DNA from: Parcubacteria group bacterium | GTDB lineage: Bacteria; Patescibacteriota; Minisyncoccia; Moranbacterales; GCA-2747515 | Assembly (NCBI GenBank): GCA_041660065.1 | Contig: JBAZXC010000001.1 | Span: forward strand, 328,535-392,534 | Direction: 5' to 3' | DNA: 64,000 bases | In this document: in pieces, positions 1-7,911 of the stretch | How the letters are laid out: every line of letters starts with the position of its first letter | Numbering within the stretch: the first letter of the stretch is position 1 | The notes under the pieces: model-generated | Database searches by the model: none | Seen by the model: only the letters and a program-made list of their open reading frames with translations | Told to the model about the DNA's origin: nothing | Program-made: the position numbers and the translations under genes

Positions 1-1813
1 GGCGGAATTTCCACACTACCGGATTGTTTCATACGTTTCTTTCCCTTTTTTTGTTTTTCCAATAACTTTCTTTTGCGCGTAATATCACCGCCATAGAGTC
101 CCGCGATCACATCCTTGCGAAATGCACTGATCGTTGCGCGTGCGATCACTTTTGCGCCGATCGTTGCCTGAAGCGCCACGGCAAAGTTTTGTCGCGGAAG
201 TACTTCTTTGAGCTTGTCAACGATTTCTTTGCCGATGTGAAACGCACTTTTTTTCGGTACAATGCGAGAAAACGCATCGATCAATTCCCCGGCAACCATA
301 ATGTCCAATTTGATCAGATCGCTCTTGCGATAGCCCGACATTTCGTAATTCATCGATGCATATCCACTTGAAATACTTTTCAGTTGATCATGGAAATCCA
401 CGATCACTTCCATAAGCGGTGCATTGAAAGTCAGTTGCACACGGTCCGCATCGATATAATTCGTGTTGACATATTCTGCACGCGTTGTGTTCATGAGCTC
501 CATGATATTTCCCAGATATGTGGACGGTGCAATAATATCCAATTTTGCATATGGCTCATGAATTTCCTCGACAATTGATGCATCCGGCAACTCTGCCGCT
601 GAATAAATATCGATCAGTTCATCAGAATTTTTCTTTCGTATTTTATACACGACACTCGGCGTTGTGATCGTCGGTTGCAGACCGAATTCACGATCCAATC
701 GCGCTTGGATGATCTCCAGATGAAGCAGTCCCAAAAAGCCACAACGAAATCCCCGCCCCAAGGCTTGATTGCTCTCCGGCTCAAAACGAAACGCCCCATC
801 ATTGAGTGTGAGTTTATCCATTGCATCCCGCATCACATTGTATTCCCCACCATCCACAGGATAAAAGCTCGCATACACCATCGGTTTGACCACGCGATAC
901 CCGGGAAGCTGTACAATGCGATCATAGTTTTTTTCTTTATTGCTCTGTTTCAATGTGACCGTATCACCAACCCTGCACTCCACAACCGTTTTGAACCCCG
1001 TGGCGATATAGCCGATATCTCCCATCGTGAGCGTGTCGCATGCATCATATTGCGGACGGAAGTGCCCGAGCTCAACGATACCACTATCTTTTTTTGTCGC
1101 CATCATATGAATGTCGTCCCTTTTGGAAATCGCGCCATCCACCACCCGCACATACGCCAAGACACCCTTATACGAATCGTACACGCTGTCAAAGATCAAT
1201 GCGCGAAAATCAGCATTTTCATTTCCCCGCGGTGCCGGCACACGATCGATCACCACTTTCAATAACTCCTCCACGCCCTCGCCCGTCTTCCCGCTCACAG
1301 CCAAAATCTCCTCCTCTTTGCATCCGAGGATATGGATCACTTCTTTCTTTACTTTTTCCACATCCGCATTTGGCAGATCGATCTTGTTGAGCACAGGAAT
1401 GATCTCCAGATCATGCTCCAATGCAAAATAGAGATTGGTCAATGTCTGCGCTTGCACACCCTGTGACGCATCCACAAGCAAGATCGCACCTTCTACAGCT
1501 GCAAGTGATCGTGACACTTCATAGGCGAAATCCACATGTCCCGGCGTATCGATCAAATTCAACGTGTATTCAATTCCTTCCTCTCCCCCTTTCGTAAAGG
1601 AGGATCTGGAGGAGGATTTATATGTATATTTCATCTGTACCGGTTGTAATTTGATGGTAATGCCACGCTCTCGCTCCAAGTCCATCCCGTCCAGCATTTG
1701 CTCCTTCATCTTGCGCTTCTCCACAGTACCGGTCACTTCCAAAAGACGGTCAGCCAACGTAGACTTCCCATGATCGATATGCGCAATAATACAGAAATTT
1801 CGAATATTCTTCA
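1..1813 (-). CDS. lepA: Elongation factor 4 (LepA), C-terminal residues truncated by window start
   Basis: Minus-strand translation from ATG at 1813 reads MKNIRNFCIIAHIDHGKSTLADRLLE..., the GTP-binding motifs and LepA-specific C-terminal domain (…RKKLLEKQKKGKKRMKQSGSVEIP). The ORF runs off position 1, so it is missing from the supplied ORF track. Plus-strand ORFs 189-1431 are shadow ORFs. Confidence 0.9.
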
Positions 1814-2319: not shown

Positions 2320-2553
2320 CTAGTAAATTTGTTTGTCAATTTTGCTACTCAAATCTTTATCCTTAACAACAAATTGGATTTTCTTTGCATCGCTTAGACT
2401 ATACTGCTTATTGGTCGTATCTTTTATAGGCTCTATCCTGAATATGGGTTTAGAGTTTTTGACAACCAAAAAGGACTGTCCGCGAAGGACTTGATCAGAA
2501 ATCTTTTTGAGATCTTTATATAATTGCTTCACCCCAATAATTTGAGCTTCCAT
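2320..2553 (-). CDS. Phd/YefM-like antitoxin
   Basis: 77 aa. Pattern …LYKDLKKISDQVLRGQSFLVVKNSKPIFRIEPI matches the Phd/YefM antitoxin fold. Adjacent to the PIN gene. Confidence 0.5.
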   Translation of the reverse strand: MEAQIIGVKQLYKDLKKISDQVLRGQSFLVVKNSKPIFRIEPIKDTTNKQYSLSDAKKIQFVVKDKDLSSKIDKQIY

Positions 2554-2649
2554 AAAAATAGGTCGACTAATTATCTAACTATAGTTTAACTTTTATGTGG
2601 GAAATAGTCAATGATTCAAAGCATCTTCTAGTATTATGTATCTTGTTTT

Positions 2650-2728
2650 AAATCTCGCCTCCCCCAAATTGCGCTGTGGTAAGTCAAGGTTTAATGATAT
2701 AATCGAAATAGGTGAATGTTTAAAGTTT
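2650..2728 (+). repeat. Promoter-repeat family copy 1 (core only: TTGCGCTGTG…TGATATAAT)
   Basis: ~85% identical to 3255-3330 and 6712-6790. Contains an extended -10 motif, TGaTATAAT, at 2695-2703. Confidence 0.6.
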
Positions 2729-2787
2729 TTTGAAAAACGCCCTCTGGGAGATTATCCCAGAGAGCGCAACTGCGATGTGAAAAAAGG

Positions 2788-3096
2788 TTATTCGACGGGT
2801 TGAAAATATCCGGACAGATGATCATATCTGGCTTTTGACCCGTCACTAAATGACAACACGACCGGTTCCGCATCTGTCACTTCAGGATGAACATCTGTTA
2901 TCTTGCCAAAAAAATATTTCATCTCTTGCCAAGTTTCAGACCCGAATATTCTCGGCTTTGTCTGCTGTTTGATAGTATTCCAAAAAATCGAAAAATCGAC
3001 CACCTCAACGCTATTATCTTCAACAAACTCACAGAACCTTTCTGCCACTGTTTCCATTTTTACTCCATTGCTCGGTTTGACCACCAACCAAGCCAA
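2788..3096 (-). CDS. hypothetical protein
   Basis: 102-aa ORF between two copies of the promoter-repeat family. No recognisable domain. Confidence 0.3.
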   Translation of the reverse strand: MAWLVVKPSNGVKMETVAERFCEFVEDNSVEVVDFSIFWNTIKQQTKPRIFGSETWQEMKYFFGKITDVHPEVTDAEPVVLSFSDGSKARYDHLSGYFQPVE

Positions 3097-3217
3097 GGCA
3101 TGATTGAAGGAACTAGCCTTAATCCAGAACTTACACTACCATCGTAATTGACTATTATACCAGCTTTTAACAACCGTGTCAAGCCAAAATTCAAATAATT
3201 TCAAAAAATGGCTTACA

Positions 3218-3560
3218 TTAAGGAAAATATTTGTAATTTTCATATCTCGTCCACCCAAATTGCGCTGTGATAAAACAAAGTTTAATGATATAATCAAGAC
3301 AGGTGAATGTTTGAAGTTTTAGCCAATAAACACAGGCGTAACTTCAGATATTCGGAAACGTTATGAAAAATATCGCTTCGCTCATTTTTCATAACGTGCG
3401 CGAATATGCGAAGAGGGCTCAGCAATACATCTCATAACAACGGATATGCGGCATATCGCCCAAATTTTCTGAGCCAGCCACCCTTTGGGATGTCTGTCTC
3501 AGAAAACTTCGCATATTCGCGCACGTTAGACGAAATAAATTTATTTTATTTTTAAATTCG
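3218..3560 (+). repeat. Promoter-repeat family copy 2 (full length: operator-like palindrome + extended -10 promoter + palindromic/structured module)
   Basis: AAGGAAAATATTTGTAATTTTCATATCTCG… TTGCGCTGTG… TGATATAAT at 3286-3294. Downstream is a 36-nt palindrome GTTATGAAAAAT…ATTTTTCATAAC. A perfect 21-bp inverted repeat, AACGTGCGCGAATATGCGAAG (3393-3413) / CTTCGCATATTCGCGCACGTT (3507-3527), encloses a ~93-nt hairpin-rich segment, followed by a T-rich tract. Confidence 0.6.
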
Positions 3561-3666
3561 CTTTTTATAATAAGGAAAAATAAGTTTTTTTTATCTATTT
3601 ATAGAGGGGGAATAAGGTGTTTTTTCTGCTCTGGGAAGGCTGCAGAAAAAAATTAATTAAAAAACT

Positions 3667-4173
3667 ATGAAATTAATTACAATAAATGGACCATGCGGCA
3701 TTGGAAAAAGTACTTTATCGGAAAAAATACATGCCAACATGCCACTTTCTTTTCTTTTAGACATTGATGCCCAAAGAAGATTCATAAGTCAATACAGGGA
3801 GAAAAAAGAAGAAAGCGGTAAGATAATGATGACTATCTCAAAGGCGATAATTAAAAGTTGCCTAGAAGACGATCGCGATATCATTATTGATAAAATAATG
3901 CTTGATAATGATGTTCTTGATTTTTATTATGAAATTGCAAAGATATATGGCGCTGATGTTTATGAAATTATTCTTTGGGCGCCAAAAGAAGTTGTTATGA
4001 AACGTGCTAATGAGCGTGGTTGGCGAGAAGGTGGATTATTGACGCCAGAAAAATGCGAAATATTTTGGGATAAAATTGATGTATTAAAAAATACTCGACC
4101 TCAGGCACATATTATAAACATTGATAAAATGTCTGAGGATGAAACTTATCTTGAGGTAGCTAAAATACTATAA
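3667..4173 (+). CDS. P-loop NTPase / small-molecule or nucleotide kinase (AAA_33/zeta-toxin-like fold)
   Basis: 168 aa. Walker A motif GPCGIGKST at the N-terminus; size and pattern match small P-loop kinases. Confidence 0.6.
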   Translation: MKLITINGPCGIGKSTLSEKIHANMPLSFLLDIDAQRRFISQYREKKEESGKIMMTISKAIIKSCLEDDRDIIIDKIMLDNDVLDFYYEIAKIYGADVYEIILWAPKEVVMKRANERGWREGGLLTPEKCEIFWDKIDVLKNTRPQAHIINIDKMSEDETYLEVAKIL

Positions 4174-4186
4174 TTTTTTTTAGGCT

Positions 4187-4813
4187 ATGATATATCTAAT
4201 TGGTGGTCCTCCAAAATGTGGAAAGACGACACTGGCAAAAACATTATCAAAATCATTGGGAATTCCGTGGGTTTCTACTGACACCCTTCAATGTGTGATT
4301 AAGCCGTACATGAATGAAAGGGATTTTTCAAAAAAATTTCCTACAAGCTATCAGCGCGGTAAAGATAATGATGAAAAATACTCTAAATTTTCATCGAGGG
4401 AAATTATTGAAGCCTATCAACAACAGGCAAAAACTGTTTATGAGGCAGTAGATATGTTCACGGTTTGTGAAATTACTGACGGCAATGATTTTATTATTGA
4501 AGGCTATCATGTTGAGCCTGAGCTTGTTGCAAAACTAAACTTGAAATATCCAGAGAAAATTGAGAGTATTTTTCTTGTGAAATCTGACAAGGAAAAATTT
4601 ATTTGCGATATAAAGAAAAGTACAACCACAAATGATTGGATAATCGCAAGAACAAATAATGAAGAAACTTATCAGAAAATCGCAAACATGATTTGTGAGT
4701 ACGGAAATTTTTTTGAAAAAGAATCTGAAAAGTACGACTTCAAGGTGTTAAATATGGACAATGATTTTGATAATCAGATCAAGGAGGCAATTAATTATTT
4801 AATAACCGCCTAA
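4187..4813 (+). CDS. P-loop kinase (AAA_18/2-phosphoglycerate-kinase-like)
   Basis: 208 aa. Walker A motif GGPPKCGKTTLAKTL. Co-directional and 14 nt downstream of the previous kinase. Confidence 0.6.
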   Translation: MIYLIGGPPKCGKTTLAKTLSKSLGIPWVSTDTLQCVIKPYMNERDFSKKFPTSYQRGKDNDEKYSKFSSREIIEAYQQQAKTVYEAVDMFTVCEITDGNDFIIEGYHVEPELVAKLNLKYPEKIESIFLVKSDKEKFICDIKKSTTTNDWIIARTNNEETYQKIANMICEYGNFFEKESEKYDFKVLNMDNDFDNQIKEAINYLITA

Positions 4814-4823
4814 AATAATTATT

Positions 4824-5117
4824 ATGAATTTTGATTTAAACAACTTAGAAGAGTATTTAAAAGAAAAAATACTACCAGACTTAGAAAATAGTCGCGGTGG
4901 TTTTGACAAAATTCACACATTGGAAGTCGTTGATTGGTTAAAGCAGATTATTCGCCACAATCCTGAATTAGAACTAGACGAAACGGTTTTGCTAATTGCG
5001 GCGTATGCTCATGATTGGGGTTATGCGGGTCTTTTTAGAGACGGGCAGGTGATGAATTCTGAAATAATTGAGAACGCCAAAAAATTGCACATGGAGTTAG
5101 GCGCAAAAAATAATTGA
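4824..5117 (+). CDS. HD-domain phosphohydrolase, N-terminal fragment (interrupted gene)
   Basis: Contains H…HD motifs (HTLEVVDW…AYAHDWGY). Ends at TGA 5115-5117, immediately after an A6 run at 5105-5110. Confidence 0.5.
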   Translation: MNFDLNNLEEYLKEKILPDLENSRGGFDKIHTLEVVDWLKQIIRHNPELELDETVLLIAAYAHDWGYAGLFRDGQVMNSEIIENAKKLHMELGAKNN

Positions 5118-5121
5118 AACC

Positions 5122-5697
5122 TTGCTGAACAATAATTTTTTCTCTTTTTTGACCGATGCGCAAAAATCGCGTTGCGTTCACCTTGTAGCTGTTCATGACA
5201 AGAAGTTTGAAATTAAAGATGTTGACGAAATAATTTTAATGGAAGCTGACGTGTTGAGTGGCTTGGATGTAAATACTGAAAAACCTGTGATAGACGCCAA
5301 ATCTAATATATATCTCATGAAATCGGCGCTTAATGTAAGAATTCCGAAGTTTATTACTGATTTTAGTAGGAATGAGGCGAAAAAACTGCTCCTAGCTAGA
5401 AAAAATTACTATGAGCAAAAAAAGAGAAAGCTAATAAGGAGTTTTGAATTTTTGGCATTCACCCCTGACCCCTCTGCCAAAAATCCAAAACAAAAAAGCT
5501 TATTTAATCTATTTAGAATAAAAAGCGAATTTAAAAATAAAATAAATTTACATCGTCTAACAACCCATATCTGGTTACAGAAATTTGCATCAATGACTAA
5601 TAATAAGGAGTGCAAATTTCTTCCACCCAAATTTTTGCCTTCCCTTTCTTTATATATTACAATAAGGAAGGAAGACAAAAACTTCAGATATGAGTAA
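5122..5697 (+). CDS. HD-domain phosphohydrolase, C-terminal fragment (+1 frame; open from 5101). The 3' part probably reads into the repeat element.
   Basis: The frame is open back to 5101 (AQKIIETLLNNNFF…). Removing one A from the A6 run fuses it to the 4824 ORF. The last ~60 codons are low-complexity and overlap repeat copy 3. Confidence 0.4.
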   Translation: MLNNNFFSFLTDAQKSRCVHLVAVHDKKFEIKDVDEIILMEADVLSGLDVNTEKPVIDAKSNIYLMKSALNVRIPKFITDFSRNEAKKLLLARKNYYEQKKRKLIRSFEFLAFTPDPSAKNPKQKSLFNLFRIKSEFKNKINLHRLTTHIWLQKFASMTNNKECKFLPPKFLPSLSLYITIRKEDKNFRYE

Positions 5698-5770
5698 CGT
5701 TATGAAAAATATCGCTTCGCTCATTTTTCATAACGTGCGCGAATATGCGAAGAGGGCTCAGCAATACATA
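5683..5770 (+). repeat. Promoter-repeat family copy 3 (partial: palindrome + left arm of the 21-bp inverted repeat)
   Basis: CTTCAGATAT…GTTATGAAAAATATCGCTTCGCTCATTTTTCATAACGTGCGCGAATATGCGAAGAGGGCTCAGCAATACAT is near-identical over ~75 nt to 3350-3430. Confidence 0.6.
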
Positions 5771-5875
5771 ACACTGGATATCAGGTTCCGTAAAAAGAAA
5801 TTATTATAGTTTTTTGTTAAAAAACGTAATACTAATATCAACGTACTGACATTAGGAGGATTCATTATGAGTCAA

Positions 5876-6025
5876 GATGGGGATGATAAAATCATCAACG
5901 AAGAGTTAGACAGACTTGAATCTGAAGGTAAAGATGTTGATGATCTACGAAAGTTTTTGCTCGATAAAGACAGAGGCAACTCTTTGGTTGATCCAGAGCT
6001 AGAAAAATACGGATGCTTTGACTAA
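5876..6025 (+). CDS. small acidic hypothetical protein (49 aa; 52 aa if a G-run at 5876-5881 is miscounted)
   Basis: Strong RBS TAGGAGGAT at 5852-5860. The ATG at 5866, which has ideal spacing, is out of frame by one G in a G5 run. A perfect rho-independent terminator follows. Confidence 0.3.
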   Translation, partial: DGDDKIINEELDRLESEGKDVDDLRKFLLDKDRGNSLVDPELEKYGCFD

Positions 6026-6041
6026 GCACAAATGCACAACC

Positions 6042-6086
6042 AAGCCCTGTTTATGAAAATATATAAACAGGGCTTGAATCTTATTT
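6042..6086 (+). terminator. Rho-independent terminator
   Basis: 13-bp perfect stem AAGCCCTGTTTAT / ATAAACAGGGCTT followed by a T-rich tract. Confidence 0.7.
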
Positions 6087-6352
6087 AAGAACGCTATAAT
6101 AATTTCTTTTATTCCATTCAAATATTTGATATTATTTATAAATAATATCAGGGGTATCAAAAACTTTTGATACCGAGAAATATTTTGCAATATCCGCTTC
6201 ACTCATTTTTCATAATACCGAATAGCTGGTTACACAGAAAAAAAATCACAAATATCCTTTCATTTTTAAATAGCCCTTTTTTGAAATTCTTTGAAAAAAG
6301 TCCCCAGCAGAAATAGAATCTGCCAGGGACAAGACGTGGGCTTGCGCGCTGT

Positions 6353-6566
6353 TCACAAAAAAACAGAACGCAGTTCGCCAAATGTGTTTGATCCGCTGCT
6401 TGACGACACTGATGAAAGAACGATCGGAATGAAGATGGGGAGTAACTGCGACATTGGCGTTACATACACCATCGCTTCAGCAGGCACAAAATGTGGCAAG
6501 ACAGTAACGTTGATAATTGCTACCAACGTGTTCCAAACCGCAATCACGAGAAATATTTGTCTCATA
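6353..6566 (-). CDS. small hydrophobic membrane protein (71 aa)
   Basis: RBS AGGAGGG directly upstream of ATG 6566. MRQIFLVIAVWNTLVAIINVTVLP… is highly hydrophobic. The longer tracked ORF (to 6757) runs into the repeat and is unlikely. Confidence 0.3.
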
Positions 6567-6681
6567 TAACCCTCCTTGTATAGTATGTCAGCAGGAAATC
6601 CACTGAACCGTGCATCGTAGCATATTTCAAAGCTTTTGTCCATAGGCGTTTCAAAAAATTTAAAATAAAGACTTATGATAA

Positions 6682-6818
6682 GGAAAATATTTGCAATTTT
6701 CATATCTCGCTCACCCACGTTGCGCTTTGGTAAATCAATGCTTGGTGATATAATCAAAATAATTGGATATTGAAGTTTTGGCCGATATGCACAGGTGCAA
6801 CTTCAGATATTTGAAAAC
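6682..6818 (+). repeat. Promoter-repeat family copy 4 (operator-like palindrome + extended -10 promoter), upstream of the GNAT gene
   Basis: AAGGAAAATATTTGCAATTTTCATATCTCG…TTGCGCTTTG…TGATATAAT at 6746-6754. ~85% identical to 3218-3358. Confidence 0.6.
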
Positions 6819-6843
6819 GTCAATTGAAATTTAATCATCAAAC

Positions 6844-7311
6844 ATGAACAACATTAGAAATAAAAGCATATCTGCAGGTATTAAGATAGAAAAAATGACC
6901 AGAAAAGATCTGCCTATTCTATTTCATTTTGGCAAAGATCAGTGGAAAAAGTCTGATTGGCTTACTATGGAATATTTGCGCTCTTCATTCGAACAGAGCG
7001 GCCCTAGTTATGTGGCAAAAATTGGAGATGATGTGGTTGGCGGCGTGATCTTTGTATATGAAGACATCGTGAGGAACTGGATCCGATATCTGATCATCAA
7101 TAAAAAATTCCGAAGACAAGGGGTTGGGACAGCGTTGCTCCAAAAGATCTTTGAACAAATGAAGTCTGGCGAGAGCATTTTTGTCGATACGGGCGTCAGC
7201 GATAAAGATGCGATCAACTTCTATGAAAAATGCGGCTTCAAAAATCGCGGAATGGTCAAGAGCCTCTATGGAAACGAGCCGGCCTATTTTCTAGAAAAGA
7301 CGTTCAATTGA
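6844..7311 (+). CDS. GNAT family N-acetyltransferase
   Basis: 155 aa. Acetyl-CoA binding motif RRQGVGTALL (Q/RxxGxG/A). Confidence 0.8.
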   Translation: MNNIRNKSISAGIKIEKMTRKDLPILFHFGKDQWKKSDWLTMEYLRSSFEQSGPSYVAKIGDDVVGGVIFVYEDIVRNWIRYLIINKKFRRQGVGTALLQKIFEQMKSGESIFVDTGVSDKDAINFYEKCGFKNRGMVKSLYGNEPAYFLEKTFN

Positions 7312-7383
7312 ATTTCAAACGAAATTTTTGGCAATATTACACAACAAAAATACGTATTAGCCGAGACGCATTAATTTACTGCT

Positions 7384-7833
7384 ATGGAGATGATAAAACA
7401 TTTTACTGCCACTACTTATGTTGTGCACGAAAAGAAAGTGCTTTTGCATTTTCACAAGAAACTTCACATGTGGCTGGCAATTGGTGGTCACATCGAGGAC
7501 AATGAACTTCCCGAGGAAGCTGCCTTACGAGAAATAGCTGAAGAAACCGGTTTGATCGCAACCCTTTATGATCCGGATGGACAAATTGGCGTTAGTGATG
7601 TTGAGCAATTAATTCGCCCGATGCATATCTTGCTTGAAGATATTGGCGGGACGCATAAACATATTGACCTTATCTACTATGCGAGAACTGAGTCCGATGT
7701 ATTAAATCCGCAAGACGGAGAGACCGCCAACATAAAATGGTTCACAACTGATGACATACAAAACCTTGATGCGCCGGAAAATGTAAAGACACTTTCTTTA
7801 GCAGCAATTCTTCTTTTATGCCCTACCGATTAA
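7384..7833 (+). CDS. Nudix hydrolase
   Basis: Nudix box GGHIEDNELPEEAALREIAEETGL (GX5EX7REUXEEXGU). Confidence 0.8.
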   Translation: MEMIKHFTATTYVVHEKKVLLHFHKKLHMWLAIGGHIEDNELPEEAALREIAEETGLIATLYDPDGQIGVSDVEQLIRPMHILLEDIGGTHKHIDLIYYARTESDVLNPQDGETANIKWFTTDDIQNLDAPENVKTLSLAAILLLCPTD

Positions 7834-7837
7834 CATT

Positions 7838-7882
7838 ATACAAAAAATAAAAAGGTCTTTCATGATACTAATGAAAAACCTT
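7838..7882 (-). terminator. Hairpin terminator (minus-strand reading gives a T-run after the stem)
   Basis: 12-bp stem AAGGTCTTTCAT / ATGAAAAACCTT between convergent genes. An A-run lies on the plus side. Confidence 0.45.
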
Positions 7883-7911
7883 TGTGAATCGTAAGGATCG
7901 TCACCTAAATG

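Follow-up and report, generated by a model that had tools for sequence, protein, structure and literature searches.

The closest described counterparts of the repeats analysed here are integron recombination sites. In integrons, the bases that follow the crossover in R' are part of the next cassette downstream, whose own R'' is complementary to them; it is the folded single (bottom) strand of attC that recombines; cassettes are promoterless and driven by the Pc promoter of the platform, and their attC sites, 57–141 nt long, conserve only the R boxes. We analysed a 64-kb stretch of DNA from a Parcubacteria group bacterium (contig JBAZXC010000001.1, positions 328,535 to 392,534; hereafter the window), in which a family of promoter-bearing, palindrome-rich repeats occupies positions 2610–6830. 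Comparison with related loci suggests that an integron-like array of gene cassettes, of a kind characteristic of a group of Patescibacteria, is present here and that these repeats are its junction (recombination) sites; we assign this reading a probability of about 75%.

A complete site can be outlined as ACATCnnnnAAC, an 11-nt arm, a variable centre of 40–170 nt, the complementary arm and GTTnnnnGAAAT. Read on the coding strand, the 5' half consists of ACATC-nnnn-AAC (R''), one nucleotide, an arm of about 11 nt (L''), GGYT and an optional hairpin. The 3' half has AACTTC overlapping the second arm (L', often with one bulged G), a spacer of 3–4 nt ending in C, and GTT-nnnn-GAAAT (R'). The centre always holds CACCCAAAT and AACTTC, with an optional promoter or hairpin between them; it measures 40 nt in its minimal form, and in the sub-lineage of the window it is made up of a hairpin and an outward-pointing extended -10 promoter. 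The distance from AAC to GTT ranges from 64 nt (6436–6500 in locus L015) up to about 190 nt, giving a size series with constant end architecture. The outer stem varies from 9 bp up to 70 nt and contains a fixed 2 × 2 mismatch, GAAAT against ACATC; on the coding strand, L' is the 3' arm, and it is there that the bulged base is found.

Among 73 distinct sites with 44 distinct arms, the AAC is invariant and the GTT almost invariant, and the two sides of the spacer differ in length (1 versus 3–4 nt). The L'' and L' arms covary: with their own partner they form 10.47 of 11 possible Watson-Crick pairs, against 6.96 of 11 with the partners of other sites under the same maximising procedure. Pairing was scored by this matched-control test because the MAFFT alignment of the site ends loses register where a site has a bulge or a spacer of 3 nt. 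A generic finder of AAC...GTT palindromes gave 32 matches per shuffled set, compared to about 86 observed, and served only to list variants of the L arms. As the arms of promoter-bearing sites straddle the promoter, their pairing must act in DNA (single strand or cruciform) or in read-through RNA.

The ends of the cassettes carry a second signature. What follows the GTT where a cassette begins is the reverse complement of what precedes the AAC where that cassette ends, and this match spans 20–45 nt in two cassettes of L005, in L009, L013 and L020, and in the kinase-HD gene cassette of the window (3525–5561, plus strand). The inverted ends of the latter, 3525–3595 and 5492–5561, match at 92% over 49 nt, extending to 70 nt; this 45–70-nt inverted repeat, which brackets the whole kinase-kinase-HD block, is absent from the first-pass annotation of the window. 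In an independent set of adjacent pairs, all four bases of the tetranucleotides match in 12 of 27 cases, against 4.5% of 2,574 non-adjacent pairs. Within a single site they match in only 8 of 73, and the flanks of one site agree only in the family consensus. Judged from these comparisons, the complementarity is the footprint of integron cassettes.

Six genome loci with sufficient left flank contain a gene for a tyrosine recombinase of 272–308 amino acids, on the opposite strand and immediately left of the array. An alignment of these six recombinases alone, made with no reference to the repeats, was used to fetch 80 metagenome loci, which were then scanned with two hidden Markov models (HMMs); the DNA searched amounted to 283 kb upstream and 295 kb downstream of the recombinase. 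This gave 69 sites, of which 67 are upstream of the recombinase gene and antisense to it; of the other two, one is upstream in the same-strand orientation and one is downstream. Where the upstream flank measures at least 1.5 kb, sites occur in 11 of 14 loci in which the recombinase shares 55% or more identity with the query and in 8 of 10 at 45–54%; arrays thus accompany 19 of the 24 recombinases with at least 45% identity, and 1 of the 13 below 45%. The gene on the other side of the recombinase differs, being lepA in L105, def-fmt in L102 and a glycosyltransferase gene in L115, which argues that the linkage between recombinase and array is not plain synteny. The promoter-bearing site type of the window also occurs in a recombinase-headed array, in L060.

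Directly upstream of the recombinase start is an attI-like region with two TTCGYATA direct repeats about 40 nt apart. In over 15 loci, the second repeat is followed by AnAACGA|GTTnnnnGAAAT, which precedes the start codon by 80–180 nt; the region was noted in L022–L066 and in L004, L010 and L014. The first cassette begins at the GTT of this site, and in L009, L010 and L014 its far end is complementary to that start. The TTCGYATA region presumably functions as attI. We also observed that its motif, TTCGYATA(A), is similar to AACTTCGCAT, which is conserved in the 3' arm of the sites, making it a candidate recombinase-binding sequence.

Public records call the recombinases "Phage integrase family protein" or "hypothetical". 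Against NCBIfam they score at the cut-off of archaeal XerA (NF040815; 211–234 bits, cut-off 220) and nearly as well, in two stretches, against the integron-integrase model TIGR02249 (209–230 bits, cut-off 265). They align end to end with the XerA structures 4a8e and 5hxy. The alignment with the integron integrase VchIntIA (2a3v) splits in two, with IntI residues 183–236, where the IntI-specific additional domain is located, reduced to 18 residues in the recombinase.

The arrays are mosaic between populations. Recombinase P0006, identical in sequence, stands at the head of two distinct arrays from different samples: in L115 and L116 it is the L009 array, while L118 shares the proximal four genes and continues in L014-like fashion at 99.9% identity, thereby joining L009-type and L014-type parts. 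In L118 the switch maps to 61 nt within a conserved 3' module, the hairpin whose loop is TTCACCCCTGACCCCTC; this interval is located 70–130 nt upstream of R'', and both parents have it in identical form. L010 and L014 also have lepA and the recombinase in common and different cassettes. All contigs with recombinase P0005 contain the same array, P0006 being the only one to give two array versions; contigs with P0001 are mostly too short on the array side.

The distribution of the family was determined with a pattern scan for CCCANNTTGCGCTNTG-N16-TGATATAAT over 185,579 species genomes (GTDB, one genome per species). The scan returned 20 loci, where we estimate that about 0.07 would be expected by chance, all in metagenome-assembled genomes (MAGs) of Patescibacteria assigned to Moranbacteria, Parcubacteria, Magasanikbacteria and Falkowbacteria. 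Around the matches the whole unit of about 190 nt is conserved at 80–90%, even between different candidate phyla. With an HMM of the unit, these loci yield additional copies that have diverged further; all copies of a locus share one strand, at a spacing of 0.6–1.6 kb (for example at 625, 1548, 2137 and 2871 in L005, and at 2472, 3377 and 4937 in L009). The open reading frames (ORFs) between copies are not homologous between genomes and are mostly on the array strand; segments between sites have a median length of about 750–790 nt, with the longest ORF on the array strand in 29 of 36 and 22 of 31 segments. Among the genome loci, a set chosen by means of the promoter pattern, TGnTATAAT points toward the next cassette in 30 of 57 sites and in the reverse direction in none; in the unbiased, recombinase-fetched set it is present in only 4 of 69 sites.

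A platform of this kind would comprise the divergent recombinase, the attI-like site, the attC-like sites and the cassettes. Circular cassettes would be inserted and excised, as in integrons, by site-specific crossover at or beside the AAC/GTT boxes of the folded sites; the footprint expected of this is seen in the cassettes, which have GTTnnnn... as their left boundary and the complementary ...nnnnAAC as their right one. The recombinase is the likely catalyst of the exchange, with the exact crossover point presumably at or near these boxes, and folded single-stranded DNA is its likely substrate, as the covariation across 40–170 nt and across the promoter and the favourable single-strand folds indirectly suggest. 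In the promoter-bearing sub-lineage, where the predicted site promoters would fire, each junction would express the downstream cassette, and captured genes would arrive in a ready context of promoter, 5' leader and 3' hairpin.

Several observations weigh against this interpretation. In the 64-kb window, tblastn finds no tyrosine recombinase, nor is there an attI-like site, and three of the four promoter copies lack the R''-L'' half. The tetranucleotides do not fully match in 15 of the 27 adjacent pairs, part of which probably reflects missed or mis-anchored sites, and the 5' tetranucleotide of a cassette common to L003 and L014 mismatches its own 3' end in L003. The recombinase is without the IntI-specific additional domain. 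Finally, the only mapped allele switch, that of L118, lies away from GTT and is explained equally well by homologous recombination, so it does not confirm the crossover point. For the window itself, the best explanation would be a recombinase-less, partly decayed array, comparable to a cluster of attC sites that has no integron-integrase (CALIN). An integron-like platform remains the best-supported reading, all alternatives ranking below it.

One alternative is a recombination hot spot with no site-specific chemistry of its own, in which accessory genes share standardised expression signals (promoter, 5' leader, 3' hairpin), homologous recombination between these reshuffles the arrays, and the Xer-like gene codes for the housekeeping dimer-resolution enzyme, its linkage being due to synteny only. 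The L118 switch within a module identical in both parents would fit this, as would the XerA-like character of the recombinase from end to end and the long conserved 5' and 3' modules that flank many cassettes. However, homologous recombination predicts neither cassette-specific complementary ends flush with GTT/AAC nor covarying L arms with conserved asymmetric spacers; an attI-like half site at the first cassette boundary and a 67/69 polarity maintained across the lepA, def-fmt and glycosyltransferase neighbourhoods are not predicted either, and we consider this explanation unlikely. The same cassette-end signature bears on the suggestion of the first-pass annotation that the repeats are a promoter-carrying miniature inverted-repeat transposable element (MITE), or REP-like element, spreading by transposition. 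Promoter-bearing MITEs, such as the Correia elements of Neisseria, are dispersed, cause target duplications and have terminal repeats of their own. The repeats do resemble them as short, multi-copy, palindromic DNA that supplies promoters to its neighbours, and the 80–90% conservation between Moranbacteria, Magasanikbacteria, Falkowbacteria and Parcubacteria suggests horizontal spread. In contrast to MITEs, they are confined to one-orientation arrays beside a recombinase, with no further copy in the remaining 57 kb of the window (BLAST and HMM scans); there are no target-site duplications and no associated transposase, and it is the ends of the gene cassettes that are complementary, not the flanks of the element. 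Transposition of a MITE is thus very improbable as the source of the family.

A cis-regulatory RNA or a regulon, with the leader, the hairpins or the putative operator acting as riboswitch, small RNA or repressor site, is no more probable. It would account for the conservation of a 65-nt transcribed leader and of the GAAAAT..ATTTTC palindrome upstream, and single-strand folds are indeed more stable than shuffles, with z = -8.6 for 3355–3540 and z = -3.6 for 5545–5715 as single-stranded DNA. Against it, the covarying arms of complete sites lie on either side of the promoter and so cannot pair in a transcript made from it; in the leader hairpin, aacttc never changes, yet its 5' counterpart gaagtt does so with no compensating substitutions; the downstream genes are unrelated; and most sites of recombinase-headed arrays are promoterless, as the TGnTATAAT count given above shows. 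Rfam 15 gives no match at gathering thresholds over the whole window and only sub-threshold matches at E <= 10 in 2500–7000, none of which makes the repeat a member of a family, and a tRNA/tmRNA scan gave nothing relevant. The discrete structured RNA of about 190 nt envisaged in the first-pass annotation is therefore not upheld, and its small regulon gives way to an integron-like cassette array; the leader may still have a regulatory role on top of a role in recombination. A recent private segmental duplication of one promoter region would explain the exact 74-nt duplicate (3357–3430 and 5696–5769) but is refuted because the family also occurs in dozens of metagenome contigs and in over 20 genomes of Patescibacteria, which leaves it practically no probability. 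Copies reach far beyond the window, where their absence would have spoken against a family of repeats.

Returning to the integron-like platform, the likeness to sedentary chromosomal integrons (such as the Vibrio superintegron with its VCR-type attC sites) extends to the divergent recombinase with an adjacent attI-like site, found in the relatives and not in the window, and to one-orientation arrays of cassettes of about 0.75 kb with mostly unknown or accessory genes (toxin-antitoxin, GNAT, kinases). Like attC, the sites form an imperfect palindrome that has AAC/GTT as inner boxes, a spacer that is unpaired and asymmetric, and a second stem that covaries; they are homogeneous within an array, and the first bases of a cassette are complementary to its own R''. 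Unlike attC, they have a longer outer stem with the fixed 2 × 2 mismatch and a bulge in L', reach about 190 nt or more in length, their R boxes lying 64 to about 190 nt apart, and carry the conserved CACCCAAAT, AACTTC, ACATC and GAAAT; and sites of the window's sub-lineage bear a predicted promoter of their own, in contrast to promoterless cassettes served by Pc. With XerA, XerC and XerD acting on dif, and with the pdif modules of Acinetobacter plasmids, the system shares the XerA end-to-end alignment and modules bounded by recombinase sites. Sites of pdif modules alternate in orientation, whereas those described here are all in direct orientation and form long folded palindromes with covarying arms; no 11-6-11 dif-type core was read in them, in the course of an analysis that made no scan aimed at dif cores.

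The IntI-specific domain, around patch III, is described as a defining feature of IntIs in a paper on archaeal integrons (PMC9668308), which cites Messier & Roy 2001 for the requirement of this domain in attC recombination. The archaeal integrons described there (Ghaly et al. 2022, PMC9668308) are similar in their non-classical hosts, their discovery in MAGs and the inference of attI beside intI, and differ in that the recombinases found here are without this domain. Promoters in separate ORF-less or gene-less integron cassettes are known to drive downstream cassettes independently of Pc (PMC6557892; bioRxiv 10.1101/2023.11.21.568050); here, by contrast, the promoter is inside the recombination site, between the pairing arms, an arrangement not found in the integron-cassette promoter literature searched. 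The system thus appears to work like an integron yet departs from the strict definition in two respects, the absent IntI-specific domain and cassettes that are not promoterless. A literature search found no published description of such arrays in Patescibacteria (the candidate phyla radiation, CPR), and the papers searched report no integrons in the host phylum. On balance, we favour an undescribed lineage or analogue of integrons, widespread in Patescibacteria and characterised by a recombinase of XerA/IntI-like type that has no IntI-specific domain, a two-repeat attI-like site, structured attC-like sites whose loop motifs are conserved and a sub-lineage with promoters in the sites; it may represent an ancestral stage or a parallel invention.

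If this is correct, cassette capture with a Xer-like enzyme would extend the known host range to a large part of the diversity of bacteria with tiny genomes and provide a test case for the evolution of integrases from Xer recombinases, and a promoter inside the recombination site would solve the problem of silent distal cassettes. Metagenomes could also be searched with these sites for the flexible gene pool of Patescibacteria. IntegronFinder, the standard tool for the purpose in integrons, requires a match to the IntI profile for a complete integron and detects attC sites with a covariance model (PMC9024848, which also defines CALIN); it would probably miss or under-call the arrays of Patescibacteria.

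In the window, the repeat finder, BLAST and a four-way alignment agree on four copies plus fragments, all within 2610–6830, so the repeat family of the first-pass annotation stands, with its outward extended -10 promoter and its palindromic modules; the MITE, structured-RNA and mini-ORF readings attached to it do not. The inventory comprises two complete sites (3427–3536 and 5550–5710), three promoter-bearing half sites (copies 1, 2 and 4) and orphan half sites. Extended -10 promoters with the sequence TGATATAAT were located by a promoter scan at 2695–2703, 3286–3294 and 6746–6754. TTGCGC was considered as the -35 box and rejected because it is 23 nt upstream of TATAAT. Copies 1, 2 and 4, which are of the A-type, keep promoter, AACTTC, 3' arm and GTT; they follow a minus-strand gene, and in place of the 5' half they have a module with a conserved leftward promoter. 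The stretch previously called an operator is part of this conserved bidirectional-promoter module. Pairing of the upstream module with the L' arm was rejected, as "cagatacacag" sub-types have no complementary upstream stretch.

Copy 1 (2610–2735, plus strand; nhmmer score 91) is a truncated promoter module, with its extended -10 at 2695–2703; its stretch 2646–2729 is 84.5% identical to copy 2 (E = 3e-20), in the promoter part only, and it ends abruptly at about 2728–2735, facing the terminator hairpin (2738–2766) of a convergent ORF. Copy 2 (3190–3359, plus strand, with a match extent of 3190–3361 and an nhmmer score of 167) is an A-type half site, and the unit is also present in L002–L021. 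It contains the upstream module with GAAAAT..ATTTTC, CCACCCAAATT, the extended -10, AACTTC with the L' arm (3340–3355) and the spacer AAAC. Copy 3 (5550–5710, plus strand) is a complete attC-like site that matches the "short" HMM at E = 3e-29 and has homologues in L004, L005, L013 and L019. From its 5' end it consists of R'' ACATCGTCTAAC (5550–5561), L'' (5563–5574), a hairpin (5580–5620), CCACCCAAATT (5623–5633), a weak promoter TTGCCT-17-TACAAT (5635–5663), AACTTC with L' (5680–5695) and R' GTTATGAAAAAT (5699–5710). Taken as 5570–5769, the copy has a diverged promoter part, after which 5680–5769 is 95.6% identical over 91 nt to 3340–3430, including the exact 74-nt repeat; the recent duplication in the window thus measures 74–91 nt. 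Copy 4 (6647–6830, plus strand; nhmmer score 132), again an A-type half site, has the upstream module, the extended -10, AACTTC with L' (6799–6813) and a variant R' GTCAATTGAAAT (6819–6830); 6650–6820 is 79.7% identical to copy 2 over 172 nt (E = 3e-38). An additional repeat fragment is located at 6158–6215.

Between copy 2 and the kinase genes lie two palindromes. The 36-nt palindrome reported previously is real and forms a hairpin with a 13-bp stem at 3358–3395. Its 3360–3395 part (plus strand) is composed of an R'-type end GTTATGAAAAAT, a 12-nt loop and the complementary R''-type end ATTTTTCATAAC; in integron terms it reads as an empty cassette, with nothing between its two ends. The conserved mini-ORF proposed for it exists as letters, but the equivalent hairpins in L002, L010, L014 and L015, which vary in sequence and length with compensatory changes, share no reading frame. 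It is followed by a composite palindrome (3396–3536, plus strand), in which the outer arm 3396–3413 is perfectly complementary to 3507–3524; the perfect inverted repeat noted earlier is confirmed here, at 22 bp rather than 21 (3392–3413 and 3507–3528). Nested in the composite palindrome is a complete attC-like site (3427–3536; "short" HMM match 3425–3537, E = 2e-10), with R'' ACATCTCATAAC (3427–3438), L'' (3440–3451) and CGCCCAAATT (3457–3466) on the 5' side, and AACTTC with L' (3505–3524) and R' GTTAGACGAAAT (3525–3536) on the 3' side. The hairpin and the outer palindrome arm (3360–3430) are duplicated at 5699–5788 on the plus strand, the duplicate being truncated at 5769, and an orphan R''-L'' half site follows at 5766–5785 (weak "short" HMM match at 5767–5802). 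A degenerate junction at 6204–6295 consists of an R''-L''-like half site (6204–6229) and an inverted A-type upstream module (6242–6295).

The left end of the window is occupied by lepA (elongation factor EF4; 1–1790, minus strand), which runs off the window and was identified by six-frame translation and nucleotide homology to L010 and L014. In L010, L014 and L105 the gene order is lepA, recombinase, array. In the window, vapC (a PIN-domain gene; Pfam E = 4e-10; 1933–2313) and a vapB-like antitoxin gene (2320–2553), both on the minus strand, are at the position where the relatives have the recombinase and the attI-like site. As a side observation, lepA of L010 (2523–4838, equal to L105 10849–13164) contains an insertion of about 150 amino acids, PDDEXK_3 nuclease-like, inside the GTPase domain, which is not present in L014 or the window. 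The region from 2 to 7 kb has a GC content of 33–36%, versus about 42–45% in the flanks.

Between the repeats lie small genes that are unrelated to one another, namely those for two P-loop kinases, a frameshifted HD protein, a GNAT acetyltransferase and a NUDIX hydrolase, as well as small ORFs without a family. According to Pfam, the kinase-HD cassette codes for P-loop kinases at 3667–4173 and 4187–4813, followed by the HD-domain gene in two parts (4824–5117 and 5122 onward). A +1 frame change in an A-run near 5100–5117 divides this HD-domain gene (4824–5697), whose second part reads through the 3' inverted repeat of the cassette up to 5697; the gene is either a pseudogene or the result of an assembly error. 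Further on, the plus strand has a 52-residue acidic ORF (5867–6025) with a terminator at 6041–6076. The last expressed unit (6844–7883, plus strand) contains the GNAT acetyltransferase (6844–7311) and NUDIX hydrolase (7384–7833) genes and a bidirectional terminator (7851–7883); the array ends after it, since HMM scans find no site that follows. PADLOC gave only local P-loop and Nudix-box matches among the cassette proteins and no identifiable defence system. An exact-protein look-up returned no record for the first kinase and, for the GNAT protein, only L001, a Logan contig (SRR18595301). L001 represents the same genome, with 100% identity to the window, and stops precisely at the exact 74-nt repeat (position 5696 of the window), indicating that the repeats break short-read assemblies.

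Two units are in reverse orientation. The first (2738–3182, minus strand) has a perfect leftward promoter, TTGACA-17-TATAAT at 3182–3154 (12/12 with TG), which the first-pass annotation does not contain, an ORF at 2788–3057 (or to 3096) that has no Pfam or PADLOC match, and the terminator hairpin at 2738–2766. The second (6300–6642, minus strand) has the promoter TGGACA-17-TACGAT (6642–6614), an ORF for a 70-residue membrane protein (6356–6568) and a terminator (6330–6300). It is flanked by inverted A-type upstream modules of 54 nt, at 6242–6295 and 6650–6703; around ORF 2788–3057 the inverted module copies amount to only about 14 AT-rich nt, at 2722–2735 and 3199–3208. These flanking modules hint that the minus-strand units were inverted or captured by a separate event.

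Elsewhere, a cassette in L115 (4307–6727, equal to L009 5344–7764) codes for a single 806-residue protein with N6-methylase and specificity domains, which is restriction-modification-like, so the arrays also carry large defence-type genes. A conserved 5' leader pattern, AGAGGGG..AAGGTG..hairpin, occurs inside cassettes. The cassette-internal leader "tttatttatAGAGGGGtAtAAGGTGTTTT..hairpin..gAAAAA" is just upstream of the ORFs, at 3604–3660 in the window and also at L004 3517, L009 3635 and 5203, L015 7521, L016 1933 and L020 238. In the window it includes a candidate 17-codon upstream ORF (3619–3672) that starts with GTG and whose stop overlaps the kinase start (ATGA), and 3569–3702 has a sub-threshold Rfam match to antisense_SR1 (30.7 bits against a gathering score of 45). 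At the other end of the cassette, about 70–100 nt upstream of R'', is the 3' hairpin with the conserved loop TTCACCCCTGACCCCTC, at 5449–5483 in the window and also in L004 (about 3195), L005 (about 4230), L009 (about 4810), L014 (about 6440) and L019 (about 5260). The conserved loop sequence is 17 nt long, TTCACCCCT(G/T)ACCCCTC, and the stems around it vary with compensation, as in TTTTTGGCA/TGCCAAAAA, CTCAAAAAA/TTTTTTGAG and GAAAAAAGGAA/TTCCTTTTTTC.

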